Below are positions 39,273 through 60,026 of a stretch of DNA of 64,000 bases, in pieces. The stretch lies in NCBI GenBank assembly GCA_016176685.1, contig JACOWS010000002.1, positions 30,608 to 94,607 on the forward strand, in the 5' to 3' direction. Position 1 is the first letter of the stretch. Each line of letters opens with the position of its first letter. The notes under the pieces are model-generated. The model made no database searches, was not told the origin of the DNA, and saw nothing but the letters and a program-made list of their open reading frames with translations. A program made the translations under genes and the position numbers. Origin of the DNA: Patescibacteria group bacterium (GTDB lineage: Bacteria > Patescibacteriota > Minisyncoccia > Phycocordibacterales > SBAW01).

Positions 39273-40933
39273 CTACAAAAGTATCTCGACTAGTCGGCTT
39301 AATACAAAGTCGCGTTCCAGTGCGGAAAGGAACCACCCGGCTTGCGGACCGTGCGTTTTGCCGAGGAAAGCCAGGTAGATTGCTTTAAACAGCTCCGCCG
39401 GGGCTATGCCCTGCCCTTCCTTTATTTCATGCAGTTTTTTGTGCAAGTCATCACCGCTTGGCATCTGCGGCGACACTTCTATATATCGAAGTAGCTCGCC
39501 GAGAGCTTTTTTCTGCGCGTCGCTTAAACTGTTAGCTGCGTCCGGGAGCGTTTTCTGCAGTTCATAGACAAACCTCTCCGGCGCATATTGTGCGAGCCAT
39601 TTTTTTGCATACGAGGCGCGCTCCTTGAGCTCTGTTTTATCCTCTGCGGTGAGCGCACCGCCTTTTATTTTTTCCACCTCCACTTCCACCTTAAGGTGCG
39701 GCATCTGCACGATGAAGGCCACTTGCGAAAACCGCGGGAGAAAGACCGGTGGCGGAATCCGCCGGAGAAATGGTCTGGCCTCGCCTTGCCCGCCAGGAGA
39801 TTGCGGGCGAGCGAGGAGACCCGAGGACCTTTCTCCGGCGGATTCCGCCGTAGGTTCAAACAAATATGAAAACAACCGCGCGTAGTCGTCTTTGACGCCG
39901 GCCCAATAGCTCAAGGCGAGTTTGTCGTACTGGTCGTAGAGCACCGGTATGGTATCGCCCTCGGGGTCGAAATTTATTTGCTGGTTGATGTCGCGGCCCA
40001 GCAGTGCCAAACGGAAAATCTTTGTGGGTACCAGGTCTGAAATTTCTTTAGCACTGCTCCCCCTCCCTTTGCTTGACGACATCTTTTTGCCGCCCGCGAG
40101 CAAAAACTCGTAGGGGATGTCAAACGGCGGCTCGTAGTTGAAGACTTCTTTGGAAATATGGTTGGCCACGTCGCGCGAGCCGCCGCGCGTCGAGTGGTCT
40201 TTGCCCGCGCCCTCTACCAAAACTCCGCCCACCTTCCACTTTGCGGCCCACTCAACCTTCCACGGCAACTTGGCTTTACCGCCAAACGGGGAAACTCTGC
40301 CCGCAAATCCGCATCCTTTTGTATATTCAACCTTATCTTCTCTGCAGAGGACGGCCACTGTTTTGCCATCGAAGTCGCTTGCTTCTGTGGTTGCTATCTT
40401 TCCGCACCCCGGGCACACTACGGAGAGCGGGAGCCACTCCCCTTCTTTTTGCGAGCCGGAAACTTCTTTATATATAGTGCGGATTTTTTCGGCATTCTTG
40501 AGCGCCCCGGTAATAGCCCCGTCCATGCGGCCAGAAAGATATAGGTCGCTTGCCCACGAGTATTCTGGGGTAAACCCCGCATGCGCTATGGCTTTCTTAA
40601 AGTCGTCGGCAAAGTACTCGGCAAAGTTTAGGGCGCTGGGCTCTGGTGATGGCACGTTTTTAAGCGGCATTCCCAAATAGTGCTCAAATTGTTCGCGCGG
40701 GAGGTAGGCGGGGATGTCATCCATCGGGTCAAAGTCGTTCATCTCAAAGCGAAATACGTTCGGGACTTTTGCTCCGCGAGTATCTTGGCCACCGCGCCGT
40801 GTATTGCCACCCCGCGCATAGAACCTATGTGTACGCGGCCGGAGACCGTCTTTTCGTCGCGTACGACAATGGTACCCTTCCGGCCCTTGTAGCGCTCGAC
40901 TATCTCCCCCGCTATCCGCTCTGCCCAAAACAT
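39273..40933 (-). CDS. lysK: Class I lysyl-tRNA synthetase (LysK type) with an apparent single-base frameshift near 40765-40768
   Basis: Frame A (40933 to about 40766) encodes 'MFWAERIAGEIV...SGRVHIGSMRGVAIHGAVAKILAEQK' (HIGH region). Frame B continues 'VPNVFRFEMNDFDPMDD...CPGCGK...KMSSSKG' and matches archaeal-type LysRS throughout. The junction lies in an A4 run on the coding strand (TTTT on plus) that would need to be A5. Confidence 0.8.
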
Positions 40934-52727: not shown

Positions 52728-53261
52728 GTGAAAGCGACAAAAGACCCGATAGTGCAAAACGGCGAGGAGGTGCTGCGCCAAACCGCCGCCCCTATTGCAA
52801 AAAAAGACATCGCCTCGCGCGCAGTGCGCGGGCTTATCGCTCGGATGAAGAAAGTTTTAAACAAAGAGCCGCACGGCGTGGGGCTTGCGGCCTGCCAGCT
52901 GGGGGTGCCGCTCCAGCTGTTTATCATCTCCGGCCGCGCGTTTGTTGCTGACCACAAAAACCAAAAGCAAGAAAAAAAGCTCCCCCCCGACCTGGTGGTG
53001 ATAAACCCGGAGTTGGTTCGCAGTTCTAAAAAACAAAAAGAGATGTCGGAGGGGTGTCTTTCGGTGCGCGGCAAGTACGGCTCCGTGGTGCGGTTTGAGA
53101 AGGTGACCATACGCGCGCTAGATGAGAGCGGAAAGCCGTTTGTATACAACGCATCGGGCCTGCCGGCGCATGTTATCCAACACGAGCTCGACCACCTCCG
53201 TGGCCAACTGTTTATCGACAAAACAAAAAAACTCGAAGAGTGGGAGGATGACCATGAGTAA
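52728..53261 (+). CDS. def: Peptide deformylase
   Basis: Motifs 'GVGLAACQ', 'EGCLS' and 'HELDH'. Confidence 0.9.
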   Translation: MKATKDPIVQNGEEVLRQTAAPIAKKDIASRAVRGLIARMKKVLNKEPHGVGLAACQLGVPLQLFIISGRAFVADHKNQKQEKKLPPDLVVINPELVRSSKKQKEMSEGCLSVRGKYGSVVRFEKVTIRALDESGKPFVYNASGLPAHVIQHELDHLRGQLFIDKTKKLEEWEDDHE

Positions 53262-54129
53262 ACCCATGCCTCGATGTGCCTTTTTTGGGACGCCGCAGTT
53301 CGCGGTGCACGCTCTTAAAGCGCTTGAGGCGCAGGGGCTCTCGCCTGCGCTTGTGGTAACCGCGCCAGAGAGGCCGGCAGGCCGCGGGCTAAACCTCCAA
53401 CCATCCCCCGCAAAAGTGTGGGCCGAGGAGCGCGAGATAGATGTACTTGAGCCCTTAAGTCTTAGGGATAAGTCTTTTGTAGCCGAGCTTGGCAATACCG
53501 ACTGGGATGTGTTTGTGGTCTCGGCCTATGCCAAACTCATCCCAAAAAATATCCTTGACATCCCGCGCAAGGGCTCGCTCAACCTCCACCCATCGCTCTT
53601 GCCGAAGTTTCGCGGGCCCTCGCCGGCCGTCTCCGCCATCTTGGCAGACGAGCGCGCTACCGGCGTCTCTGTCATGCTGATGACCGAAAAGATGGACGCG
53701 GGGCCGGTTTTAGCGCAGGCCCGCATCGAGCTGGAAGAAGGTGCGGATGGGTGGCCGCCCACCGGTTCTTTTTTGGAGGAGCTCTTGGCAACCGAGGGCG
53801 GCAACCTTCTGGCGGAAATTTTGCCAGAGTGGCTCGCGGGTACCCTTACACCCGAGCCGCAGGACGAAAGCAAGGCGACGTACACACACAAGTTTAAAGA
53901 CCAAGATGCTTTGGTCGACCTCATGGGCGACGCGCGCCAAAACCTCTTAAAAATCCGTGCATTCGACCAGGGCCCGCGGGCGCATTTTTTTACAAAAGAC
54001 GGCAAGCGAGTACTCATCACCGACGCCCGCATAAGCGACAGTACTTTGGAAATCCTCAAGGTAATCCCCGAGGGGAAGCGGGAGATGTCGTATGAAGTGT
54101 TTGCCAAACGAGAAGCAACACAGAAGTGA
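53253..54129 (+). CDS. fmt: Methionyl-tRNA formyltransferase
   Basis: N-terminal formyltransferase domain 'RCAFFGTPQFAV' and C-terminal domain. ATG overlaps the def stop (ATGAGTAA). Confidence 0.9.
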
Positions 54130-57747: not shown

Positions 57748-57965
57748 AAATGAACCTCCGTTTGTGTGTATTCGCTCCCCTGCCCTGCAAAAAGGGCTAG
57801 GGACAGCGAAATCGGCCACCATTGGCCGACCAGAGGAGCTTAGCATAGGCCAATTTTGGTGTCAAGCTCCGCGGGTAGGACTCGACCTAGAGCTTTGTGA
57901 CTCCGGCCACATTCTTGATATGACAAAATCCATAAAATTAGGTATAGTTTTTTTGTTCGACATAT

Positions 57966-58250
57966 TCCGCGGTAGCTCAATGGTAGAGCAGCTCCCTGTC
58001 AGCAGGCAGCCTCCCACAGGAATGTGGGTTGCAAACGAGGTGAATTCGGGGAAATCCTAAGCTTTGTCGAAGGACAATCCCGAGCCAAGCTCCAGATTTT
58101 GGAGAAGGTGTAGAGACTATCCCGCAAGGGAGTACTCTCAAAAAGAGGAAGCCCCTCGCATCCAGAACGGATGATGATATAGTCCACGCCCGCAGTAATG
58201 TGGGGAAACGTGTAAGGAGTTGGTTGTAGGTTCGAGTCCTACCCGCGGAG
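57966..58250 (+). tRNA. tRNA-Asn (GUU) interrupted by a 213-nt group I intron in the anticodon loop (mature length 72 nt)
   Basis: Exons UCCGCGGUAGCUCAAUGGUAGAGCAGCUCCCUGU / UAAGGAGUUGGUUGUAGGUUCGAGUCCUACCCGCGGAG fold as tRNA-Asn with loop CUGUUAA and G73. The 5' splice site is after U, the intron ends with G, and a GCAGG internal guide-like segment follows the splice site. Confidence 0.7.
58000..58212 (+). ncRNA. Group I self-splicing intron (subgroup IC3-like) within tRNA-Asn
   Basis: Contains blocks nearly identical to the Azoarcus/cyanobacterial tRNA introns: AATTCGGGGAAATCCTAAGC, GAGCCAAGC and GAAGGTGTAGAGACTA (J8/7-P7). No ORF. Confidence 0.7.
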
Positions 58251-58482
58251 CCCAGTCCCCCGACCCCCGTCTGGGTAACCTCTCGGTTTCCCAACATCTC
58301 GCTACGCTCAATCCTTCCTCCACGAGGGACTAGGCGTCTTTTGCTCTGCAAAAGCCGAGGGTAGGACGAGAACGAGGGGTGGGTCGGAGGGGAAACTATA
58401 GTGTCCCCTCCGTGGAGGAAATTATTCAAAACCGTGGGTTTTGAAAGCGCAGTCTCGTTATAGCGGGACGAGCAGTGAGTAC

Positions 58483-58537: not shown

Positions 58538-58780
58538 ATCTATACGAATTGGCTCGTACCTATTTTACCCTAAACCCCTAGTCGCGCGCTCCGCGCGCGT
58601 GGTGGCTTTGTACCGCATCGTACGTCCCGATTTCCGTGCTGACTCTCTCGGGCGCGAGTACGCCGCGCCCTCGACCCCGCCCCGCCGCTTTCCATTCTTT
58701 CTTATTTTCGCGGGGGGGGGAATGCAAAACTGAATGGCAGCGGGGACGGGGACCCGAAAAATCCCCGATTTTTGGCGTAG

Positions 58781-58809
58781 TTGACAGAAATTATTAGGAA
58801 TCGTATAAT
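58781..58809 (+). promoter_or_regulatory. Perfect consensus sigma70 promoter (TTGACA-17-TATAAT) with an about 150-nt leader preceding the GC-rich ORF
   Basis: TTGACA at 58781-58786, TATAAT at 58804-58809. The leader contains an RNA-only 13-bp stem (two G-U pairs) and three GAACACGT motifs at 58920-58965. Confidence 0.6.
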
Positions 58810-58966
58810 ACATTGAGTTCTTTGAGAAAATCCCTTATTTGCCGTGGCAGAAAGCCCTTGAAAACAATCGAGTTTTTTCTGCTATGGCAAACCGAGGTCA
58901 GCTCGGAGCCCAATGGCCCGCAACACGTTCCGAGAGGAACACGTTGCATAACGGAGTGAACACGTC

Positions 58967-59617
58967 ATGACTGACAGGTTCATCATGTCTAGCCGCCAAG
59001 CGGCAGAACTCGACCATGCGCTTGAGCGCAACGGTTGGACGTCTGCGGACGTCAAAACGGCGACGAAGGGCAATACCCTTGCTCAATTCCGCAAGGTGTT
59101 GCTCGGGACTGCTACGGTCGTCGACAATCCTGTGACGAAAAAGAAGCAGTCGAAGCTTCTCGTCTCCGACGGCCACTATGCCGTCGTCGAAGTCGGCGAG
59201 CGGCACGATCCGGGCAGTTTGTGGCAGACTCGCCCGGGTCTCTACGTGTACGACGACTTTCGGAATCGAATCGTCGCGGCCGCCAAGCCGACCGAGACGG
59301 GAGCGAAGTTCAAGAAACTCCCGCGTTTCAAGCTCGGCCGCAATGCGACTGGTGAGGAACTGAAAGGTGCACGTCCGAATGGGATTTGGACGGCGACCGA
59401 TTTCTGTCCGTGGCTTGCCGCGAAGCTTGCGAAGCAAGCAGGTGGCAAGGACGGGGAATTCCTCAACAACGGCTGGGCCAACCTCTTCTTGGTCGAAGGG
59501 GTAAACGGCGAGGTCTTCGTCGTCGTCGTGGGCTGGTTCGGCGGCGAGTGGATCGTCGACGCGTGGCGGCTCGACGACGACTGGCCCGGTGGCAGCCAGT
59601 TCGGCTCCCGCAACTGA
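58967..59617 (+). CDS. Hypothetical protein (216 aa), about 63% GC, foreign-looking
   Basis: Long ORF with a strong promoter; no recognisable family. Confidence 0.5.
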   Translation: MTDRFIMSSRQAAELDHALERNGWTSADVKTATKGNTLAQFRKVLLGTATVVDNPVTKKKQSKLLVSDGHYAVVEVGERHDPGSLWQTRPGLYVYDDFRNRIVAAAKPTETGAKFKKLPRFKLGRNATGEELKGARPNGIWTATDFCPWLAAKLAKQAGGKDGEFLNNGWANLFLVEGVNGEVFVVVVGWFGGEWIVDAWRLDDDWPGGSQFGSRN

Positions 59618-60026
59618 CCGATTGCAACTTTGTGCGCTCGCCGGTGGCGGGCGCATTGACCCCTTGGATACTTTGGCCCTGTGCCGGAGTCCAAGGGGTT
59701 TTCGTTTGATATACTGAAATTGAAATTTCTGGCGGCGTTCCGATAACAGGGACAATAACGGGATAACGGGGACAGGCACAGTTAAATAAGCAAGAGTGTG
59801 GTATAGTTAAAAGGATTATACATTAAGCGATTTTTTATGATGGGTTATAGCTGGTCAATGATGGGAGGCGCGGGTATTTTTGGTTCTCTTATTGCAATCG
59901 TAATATTCGTGAACCTCGTTCTCGTCGGCATCTGGCTCTGGCAGCAGATCTCAAAGAAGTGACTACTTTAAACGAAACAGAGCGGCAAAAGCCGCTCTGT
60001 TTCGTTTTATGGATGGCCAAAGAATA

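Follow-up and report, generated by a model that had tools for sequence, protein, structure and literature searches.

A tRNA-Asn(GUU) gene split at anticodon site 35/36 by a 213-nt group I intron

The 64-kb stretch of DNA analysed here, part of contig JACOWS010000002.1 and referred to as a whole as the window, carries a tRNA-Asn(GUU) gene (57966-58250, plus strand) that is split between anticodon positions 35 and 36 by a group I intron of 213 nucleotides (nt; 58000-58212). Three independent lines of evidence, namely the P1 pairing, the P9.0 pairing and the empty sites of close relatives, agree on these boundaries, and the fold of the intron was demonstrated by covariation. A first-pass annotation made from the sequence alone had already read the anticodon loop of this tRNA as interrupted by a group I intron. 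The intron and its exact coordinates were borne out by a covariance-model match, by covariation, by the recovered cloverleaf and by relatives lacking precisely that segment. The subgroup that it had proposed, IC3, was not upheld and the architecture appears instead to be subgroup-IA-like.

Exons, splice sites and isotype

The exons, the intron and a promoter-like site are located as follows:

57966-57999, plus strand: 5' exon, TCCGCGGTAGCTCAATGGTAGAGCAGCTCCCTGT, tRNA positions 1-35 with C32, U33, G34 and U35 as its last bases (ARAGORN and sequence)
58000-58212, plus strand: group I intron, 213 nt, no open reading frame (ORF) (Rfam RF00028, empty sites and covariation)
58213-58250, plus strand: 3' exon, U36, A37 and A38, 3' strand of the anticodon stem, variable loop, T arm (GGTTCGAGTCC) and acceptor 3' strand, with G73 at 58250
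57920-57948, plus strand: promoter-like site ATGACA-17 nt-TATAGT, 10/12 consensus matches, its end 18 nt upstream of tRNA position 1

Joining of the exons (57999 to 58213) gave a predicted junction reading ...CCCUGUUAAGGAG... and a canonical cloverleaf that ARAGORN called tRNA-Asn(gtt), in which the anticodon GUU (G34, U35, U36) is accompanied by U1-A72 and the discriminator G73. The identity elements of bacterial tRNA-Asn are G34, U35, U36 and the discriminator G73, and U1-A72 with G73 are Asn features, in comparison to the Thr type that has G1-C72 and C2-G71 with A or U at position 73. The 5' exon matched the first half of uninterrupted tRNA-Asn genes base for base, and the 3' exon (TAAGGAGTTGGTTGTAGGTTCGAGTCCTACCCGCGGAG, beginning TAAGGAGTTGG and finishing CCGCGGAG) showed 100% identity with its intron-less orthologues.

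A metagenome scan with a 28-nt 5' exon query returned at least 120 loci, and the 120 matches listed comprised 83 uninterrupted genes with the junction CCCTGT-TAAGGAG, 29 intron-bearing genes and 8 truncated ones. The exact 71-nt ligated sequence was present as an uninterrupted gene in at least 25 metagenome loci. Three loci with an uninterrupted tRNA-Asn gene (L229, L126 and L226) had the same flanking genes as the window, encoding a formyltransferase (83% amino acid identity) and a 613-amino-acid protein (75-77%), and a nearly identical promoter-like site and leader (95-97%). In these three loci window positions 57867-57999 join 58213-58252 directly, a junction that no other register gives. 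The intron is a sporadic element that is present or absent among very close relatives, and the conserved promoter-like site presumably drives the tRNA-Asn gene.

With default settings ARAGORN did not call the split gene and found a tRNA-Pro and a tRNA-Glu alone in the window, while with introns allowed it reported Thr(tgt) with a 213-nt intron at position 34, i(34,213). Joining 57997 to 58211 instead does give an equally well-formed tRNA-Thr(tgt) cloverleaf, and because both registers fold and ARAGORN prefers Thr, a decision between the isotypes required evidence of another kind. U57999 is the last base ahead of the 5' splice site, where it forms the wobble pair of P1, and G58212 is the last intron base; the covarying part of P9.0 finishes directly before G58212, which fixes the 3' splice site. 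Together with the empty-site junctions, these pairings corroborate what the first-pass annotation had read from the sequence, that is, splicing after CUGU and before UAA, with U at the 5' splice site and a terminal G at the 3' splice site. The Asn identity that it had drawn from G73 agrees with the call on the ligated exons and with the uninterrupted genes carrying the exact product. The same annotation had flagged an alternative splice choice with a UGU anticodon, and this two-base ambiguity is real.

Under that alternative, the gene would be a tRNA-Thr(UGU) with the same 213-nt intron shifted upstream by two bases to 57998-58210 (site 33/34), as ARAGORN calls it when introns are allowed. U57997 also precedes a 5' site in this register, G58210 also closes the intron and the spliced product folds as a cloverleaf too. 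This product, however, was seen in none of the metagenome matches listed, in comparison to at least 83 with the Asn junction and at least 25 with the full Asn product, and the syntenic empty sites fit the removal of 58000-58212 alone. Moreover, U57997 is Watson-Crick paired with A58008 in the conserved P1 and not with a G, P9.0 would cease to abut the terminal G (ωG), and U1-A72 with G73 is of the Asn type and not the Thr type by established identity rules. ARAGORN also alternates between Asn 35/36 and Thr 33/34 within one homologous family. The miscall of Asn 35/36 introns as Thr(UGU) 33/34 by ARAGORN/tFind has been documented, and sequenced in-vitro products show the 35/36 junction (PMC13011429). 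We consider the Thr call to be this documented artefact and the Thr reading to be effectively refuted, with a negligible probability of being correct. The gene is a tRNA-Asn(GUU) with its intron between positions 35 and 36.

Two other pairings were considered for the 5' splice site and set aside. The hairpin that Rfam aligns as P1 (GCUCCCUG/CAGGCAGC, 57991-58010) places the splice-site U in its loop and is not the functional P1, as the family-invariant GCAG pairs with CUGU, including a U·G pair, in every member. A second GCAG (58002-58005) was rejected as a guide because it would leave a loop of 2 nt.

Core fold and subgroup of the intron

Rfam RF00028 (Intron_gpI) matched 57986-58205 with 56.7 bits against a gathering score of 50, and the E-value of 9.9e-12 over the 64-kb window indicates that this is not a chance match. 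The search had been named as a check in the first-pass annotation, and its outcome is joined by covariation in P3, P4, P5, P6a and P8. The three core blocks pointed out there were likewise present, AATTCGGGGAAATCCTAAGC at 58043-58062, GAGCCAAGC at 58082-58090 and GAAGGTGTAGAGACTA at 58104-58119. The structural elements of the intron are:

57996-58009, plus strand: P1, CUGU/GCAG, guide GCAG at 58006-58009, U57999·G58006 wobble, 6-nt loop CAGCAG
58013-58028, plus strand: P2 hairpin, CCCACA/UGUGGG with a GGAA (GNRA) tetraloop, four inner pairs with 22-33 double-sided changes each; in the minimum free energy (MFE) fold
58036-58040, plus strand: P3 5' strand, CGAGG, pairing with 58154-58158, 96.9% paired, with CG/UA, GC/CG/AU and GC/AU covariation
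58046-58083, plus strand: P4 (58046-58051 with 58078-58083), J4/5 AAA, P5 (58055-58058 with 58071-58074) and J5/4 CAA; Rfam alignment and MFE fold
58084-58109, plus strand: P6 (G58084·U58109, C58085-G58108) and P6a (58090-58094 with 58100-58104); MFE fold
58113-58119, plus strand: P7 5' strand, G-A-GACUA (A58114 bulges out), whose partner strand is 58180-58185; P7 and P3 make a pseudoknot; presumed guanosine-binding site
58120-58147, plus strand: P7.1 (UCCC GCAA GGGA, 58120-58131), linker G-U-A (58132-58134) and P7.2 (CUCU CAAAA AGAG, 58135-58147); subgroup-IA peripheral module
58154-58158, plus strand: P3 3' strand, CCUCG; covariation
58159-58173, plus strand: P8 hairpin, CAUCC/GGAUG with loop AGAAC; covariation and MFE fold
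58174-58185, plus strand: J8/7 AUGAUA and P7 3' strand UAGUCC, within the conserved GAUGAUAUAGUCC block that the search pattern selects for
58186-58212, plus strand: P9.0 (A58186-U58211, C58187-G58210, G58188-C58209) around P9 (58189-58194 with 58199-58204, GUAA tetraloop), and ωG at 58212

Covariation was counted on an unfitted MAFFT alignment (A1) of 52 distinct short family members, with the structure written for the window copy. Overall, 86.4% of cells were paired, in comparison to 32-45% when partners were slid by 1-3 columns. Double-sided changes occurred in 43/60 pairs and the observed covariation score was matched by 0/500 shuffles. Compensatory changes were found in P2, P3, P4, P5, P6a, P8 and the first two P9.0 pairs. 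Helices 4 and 5 of the alignment were 98-99% paired with covariation and helix 6 (P5) was 75% paired, while P6a (helix 8) reached 91.9% with covariation in 5/5 pairs and P8 (helix 12) 96.2% with double-sided changes in three pairs. The P9.0 pairs next to ωG covary (AU/GC/GU and CG/UA/AU/UG) and the third pair (58188-58209) was unpaired in 31/52 sequences. Within P9 the outermost pair, which closes the helix and covaries, and the innermost pair were supported, the inner columns being poorly aligned. The MFE fold of the intron alone recovered nine helices (P2, P4, P5, P6a, P7.1, P7.2, P8, P9 and P9.0; z = -2.3). The GCAG guide was present in 52/52 members without having been required by the search pattern or by the exon finder described below. 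Window positions 58000-58212 are a group I intron.

The 34-nt stretch from P7 to the P3 3' strand (58120-58153), of which 30 nt appear as an insertion in the Rfam alignment, holds both the P7.1 and the P7.2 hairpins. This hairpin-GUA-hairpin arrangement was found in 65/139 family introns examined, with compensatory variants in P7.1 (UCCC/GGGA, UCUC/GAGA, UCCU/AGGA, UCUU/AAGA and GAGC/GCUC) and with a P7.2 that folds in every case although its sequence is essentially free. The P7.1-GUA-P7.2 module is the feature by which introns have been assigned to subgroup IA/IA2 (PMC3428280, PMC4227781). With P1-P9, this module and P9.0, the architecture of the window intron is best described as subgroup-IA-like on present sequence comparisons.

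Under the IC3 assignment of the first-pass annotation, an intron of the kind seen in Azoarcus and cyanobacterial tRNA genes would have transposed to a new host tRNA. The small size of the window intron, its simple P2 with a GNRA loop and its P4, J6/7 and P7 blocks, which match IC3 tRNA introns nearly or fully verbatim, are all in keeping with this. The similarity on which the annotation relied is indeed real, as Acidobacteriota tRNA-Leu IC3 introns also contain CCCGAGCCAAGC and GAAGGTGTAGAGACTA letter for letter, but these blocks belong to a core that is common to IA and IC3 and therefore do not discriminate between the two. In the comparison set, the Acidobacteriota tRNA-Leu and Ile2 IC3 entries in the accessible part of Table S5 of PMC13011429, the sequence runs from ...GTAGAGACTA/T straight into the P3 3' strand without P7.1 or P7.2. 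In the window intron P7 (58113-58119) is not directly followed by the P3 3' strand (58154-58158), and the two conserved hairpins between them form the module that the literature uses for subgroup IA. Furthermore, subgroup covariance models placed 25/28 introns of the 35/36 site in IA and none of the Patescibacteria tRNA introns in IC (Nakagawa et al., PMC13011429), and phage and viral-contig introns in non-tRNA contexts carry an identical UCCCGCAAGGGA-GUA module. This case is built on the module and on literature classes and not on subgroup covariance scores of the window intron itself. On this evidence IC3 membership seems highly unlikely.

Splicing competence, relatives and mobility

By analogy with the standard group I pathway, C32-U35 of the anticodon loop would pair with the intron guide GCAG to form P1, which would set the U57999·G58006 wobble at the border of exon and intron. 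An exogenous guanosine, held in P7, would make the first attack, after U57999. The terminal G58212, presented by P9.0, would then take the place of the exogenous guanosine in the P7 pocket, and the free 3'-OH of U35 would attack after G58212, so that the exons would be joined as ...CUGU-UAA..., the GUU anticodon restored and the intron released. Before splicing the tRNA would be unable to decode.

Several observations weigh against a competent, correctly folded intron. P7 is invariant in the family, but this invariance is forced by the search pattern and is not independent evidence. In P1 both strands are invariant, the exon side CUGU being fixed by the tRNA, and no covariation evidence is possible for this helix. 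P1 is 4 bp long, with C at exon position -5 opposite C58010, and by inspection its loop CAGCAG offers no convincing complement to UAAGG for a P10. A U58041·C58153 mismatch, which precedes the G58042-C58152 pair of the P3 extension, is specific to the window copy where 47/52 relatives have U·G. The GCUCCCUG/CAGGCAGC hairpin may also compete with P1 and sequester the splice site. Finally, the analysis covered the 64-kb window of this genome, and a second tRNA-Asn gene may lie outside it.

Taken together with the lack of a homing endonuclease, the short P1, the mismatch, the competing hairpin and the possible second gene copy could be interpreted as a decayed, splicing-incompetent relic in a tRNA pseudogene, with another tRNA-Asn gene supplying the cell. 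Yet these weak points break no core helix. Every core helix is intact and all family-invariant nucleotides are present (by definition of invariant columns), while both exons match uninterrupted alleles of functional appearance at 100% identity, and conservation extends to the promoter-like site and leader. A 4-bp P1 in which C faces C also occurs in 12/52 relatives, and the Patescibacteria with published split genes have no other copy of tRNA-Asn (PMC13011429). A relic is in our view improbable. The catalytic activity of the window copy is likely by analogy with its relatives, and we hold with high confidence that this is a real, correctly mapped and splicing-competent tRNA-Asn intron.

Relatives were collected by a genome scan, using one genome per species and three blocks shared with published introns (P7, J8/7-P7' and ωG|UAA), which returned at least 120 loci. 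The genome matches listed were mostly from Patescibacteria, and their other hosts included Acidobacteriota, Cyanobacteria, Nitrospirota, several proteobacterial classes, Elusimicrobia, Omnitrophota, Margulisbacteria, Planctomycetes and Clostridia. An exon finder that fixed ωG|TAA and tried each upstream GT as 5' splice site recovered a tRNA-Asn(GTT) spliced at 35/36 in 109/120 genome loci among the matches listed. The closest introns among these were L054 (Nomurabacteria, 77% over 226 nt) and L070, and the closest exons were those of L011 (93.5%). The nearest relatives among the loci sampled (L204) were 82-86% identical to the window copy. One family member (L086, CAYTFL010000170.1) lay on a 1.9-kb contig binned as 'Candidatus Woesearchaeota archaeon'. 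A scan of viral sequences (IMG/VR) with the P7...J8/7-P7' pattern gave at least 120 loci (L243-L362); those listed included four split tRNA-Asn genes, the rest being the same ribozyme core in other contexts, and 24 of them had a hairpin-GTA module after P7 that was in some cases identical to that of the window.

The window intron has no endonuclease ORF within its 213 nt and its P1 loop is 6 nt long. In 35 longer relatives (519-630 nt), in contrast, an ORF of about 100-140 amino acids was nearly always found in the P1 loop upstream of the GCAGC guide (L001, L006, L012, L013, L017, L020, L022, L025, L029, L037 and L038 among them), with the signature CxxCGY...HH...CANCHRExH. Against Pfam HNH (PF01844, cut-off 21.4 bits), one of these ORFs scored 24.9 bits, a second 19.9 bits and a third gave no match. 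These HNH ORFs and the empty sites in the closest relatives are together consistent with an element of homing origin that frequently disappears or that spreads with no endonuclease of its own. At the window locus the change may have gone in either direction, by gain or by loss of the intron.

A second, shorter intron lineage was found at the same 35/36 site of near-identical tRNA-Asn genes:

177-204 nt, metagenome loci: L123, L137, L142, L151, L152, L171, L196, L198, L201, L207 and L222
237 nt, genome locus: L043

These introns have P1-P2, P7, P8, J8/7 and P9/P9.0 in common with the window intron, lack P7.1-GUA-P7.2 through a clean gap of about 29 nt (alignment A3) and are diverged in P3-P6; no RF00028 match at the gathering threshold was obtained in 4/4 loci tested. 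A 'core swap' between two unrelated ribozymes at one site was considered and softened, since A3 aligns the short lineage and the window intron over their whole length with a clean P7.1/P7.2 deletion. One tentative interpretation, which we regard as possible but doubtful, is that the tRNA-Asn 35/36 site of related Patescibacteria, with no intron, an IA-like intron or its 177-204-nt derivative, represents a natural series in which an IA ribozyme sheds its defining peripheral domain. If so, the series would include the window copy as the state with the complete module and no endonuclease. If both forms were active, they would represent a subgroup-IA ribozyme drifting beyond the standard model, and current surveys would undercount tRNA introns.

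Genomic surroundings and known systems

The window covers part of a bacterial chromosome and contains housekeeping genes, including those for DnaB, CysRS, GltX, a class-I LysRS, MurA/MurF and penicillin-binding proteins, and most of its housekeeping proteins scored under NCBIfam equivalog cut-offs. The class-I (archaeal) type lysyl-tRNA synthetase (39273-40928, minus strand) matched TIGR00467 with 276 bits against a cut-off of 147.55. The exact window DnaB sequence was found in two Logan assemblies of SRA metagenome runs only (SRR12113430 and SRR12113384), and its closest named homologues, with 78-84% identity, were from Candidatus Adlerbacteria, Paceibacterota, Parcubacteria and 'Patescibacteria group', on the basis of which the host was assigned as an uncultured Patescibacterium. 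An fmt-like formyltransferase gene (53122-54129 in the window) is found no more than a few kb away from tRNA-Asn in dozens of Patescibacteria loci with or without the intron (L229, L148, L228, L218, L214, L166 and L054 included), and this linkage could anchor searches for split tRNA-Asn genes.

A perfect 20-nt inverted repeat (57866-57885 / 58232-58251; GCTCCGCGGGTAGGACTCGA / TCGAGTCCTACCCGCGGAGC) encloses the promoter-like site and the entire tRNA gene, its upstream arm (57866-57885) being an inverted copy of the tRNA T arm and acceptor 3' end. The bracketed cassette is reversed relative to L229, L126 and L226, the last two of which also have the repeat. This looks like an inversion between tRNA-3'-end repeats and possibly reflects an old att-like site. 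In the window G73 is followed by CCCA (58250-58254), while the three orthologues encode G-CCA (GGAGCCAGAT), a difference located where the inverted repeat ends and the inversion has its boundary.

Directly downstream of the tRNA, the GC-rich intergenic region 58250-58445 contains several nested inverted repeats (for example 58385-58398/58399-58412, 58315-58324/58411-58420 and 58250-58262/58323-58335), for which no significant Rfam match was obtained. Sub-threshold Rfam matches near the locus (CopA, YrlA and a viral CITE; E 0.15-0.23) were treated as chance. Further along, a perfect 12/12 sigma-70 consensus (TTGACA-17-TATAAT, 58781-58809, plus strand) lies at the 5' part of a minus-strand ORF (58565-58813) and about 90 nt before the 3' end of a minus-strand ORF of 293 amino acids (58898-59779); no obvious plus-strand gene follows it until 58967.

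A split gene of this kind is missed by default tRNA finders and labelled tRNA-Thr(UGU) by intron-aware ones, and a genome bin carrying it would seem to be without tRNA-Asn and to have a spurious extra tRNA-Thr. As PMC13011429 has pointed out before, such omissions and mislabelling distort what is estimated for Patescibacteria in terms of genome completeness and codon capacity. The value of the present locus lies mainly in annotation, in that precise boundaries and orthologous empty sites are added to a known class and the intron is seen to be polymorphic among very close relatives; the window intron opens no new question.

The known intron-interrupted bacterial tRNA types were expanded from 4 to 21 by Williams (2020, bioRxiv 10.1101/2020.01.27.920355), and according to the accessible text of PMC13011429 these included Asn.4Ug, which tFind sometimes scored as Thr.2Ug. 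Among 95 complete Patescibacteria genomes, introns at 35/36 were reported in 15 tRNA-Asn and 3 tRNA-Asp genes, making Asn the commonest Patescibacteria type (15/22 intron-containing tRNA genes), while 35/36 introns were rarer in Cyanobacteriota, Nitrospirota, Bacillota_A, Bipolaricaulota and Pseudomonadota (Nakagawa et al. 2026, mSystems, PMC13011429). The view of the first-pass annotation that a tRNA-Asn host is uncommon is outdated in this light. Patescibacteria Asn and Asp introns self-spliced in vitro at 35/36, with the junction sequenced, and an ωG-to-C mutant was blocked in exon ligation (PMC13011429).

The window intron has the same host tRNA, 35/36 site, U-1, ωG and host phylum as the Asn.4Ug class, and its gene suffers the same Thr(UGU) 33/34 miscall by ARAGORN. 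Published Patescibacteria Asn introns (those of GCA_016699245.1 and GCA_016700315.1, in the accessible part of Table S5 of PMC13011429) share with it the GCAGC guide, GGUGAAUU, AGAGACUA-UCCC..GGGA-GUA, GGAUGAUGAUAUAGUCCAC and ACGUG|UAA, and the exact window intron was not found in that part of the table. It differs from the class in being among its shortest members (213 nt), in having no endonuclease ORF and in coming from an uncultured genome. By these features the window intron adds one more member to a class already described, and it does so in the phylum in which such introns are most frequent.

Beyond this class, the IA2 phage introns (for example T4 td, Twort orf142-I2 and the cyanophage Pf-WMP3 DNA polymerase intron) have P7.1 and P7.2 joined by G-U-A as in the window intron, and viral-contig introns outside tRNA genes have its core blocks and in some cases an identical P7.1. 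The phage introns differ in their protein-coding hosts, in a P2 that is often missing and in extended P9.1/P9.2, in comparison to the simple P2, the single P9 with P9.0 and the tRNA anticodon setting of the window intron. Related Asn introns carry the label IA1 in the accessible part of Table S5 of PMC13011429. The IC3 tRNA introns (Azoarcus tRNA-Ile, cyanobacterial/plastid tRNA-Leu(UAA), tRNA-fMet and Agrobacterium tRNA-Arg) are likewise small anticodon-loop ribozymes that build P1 from anticodon-loop nucleotides, with very similar P4, J6/7 and P7 and with GNRA tetraloops on P2 and P9, but they occupy sites 33/34, 34/35 and 36/37 in other host tRNAs and have no P7.1/P7.2.

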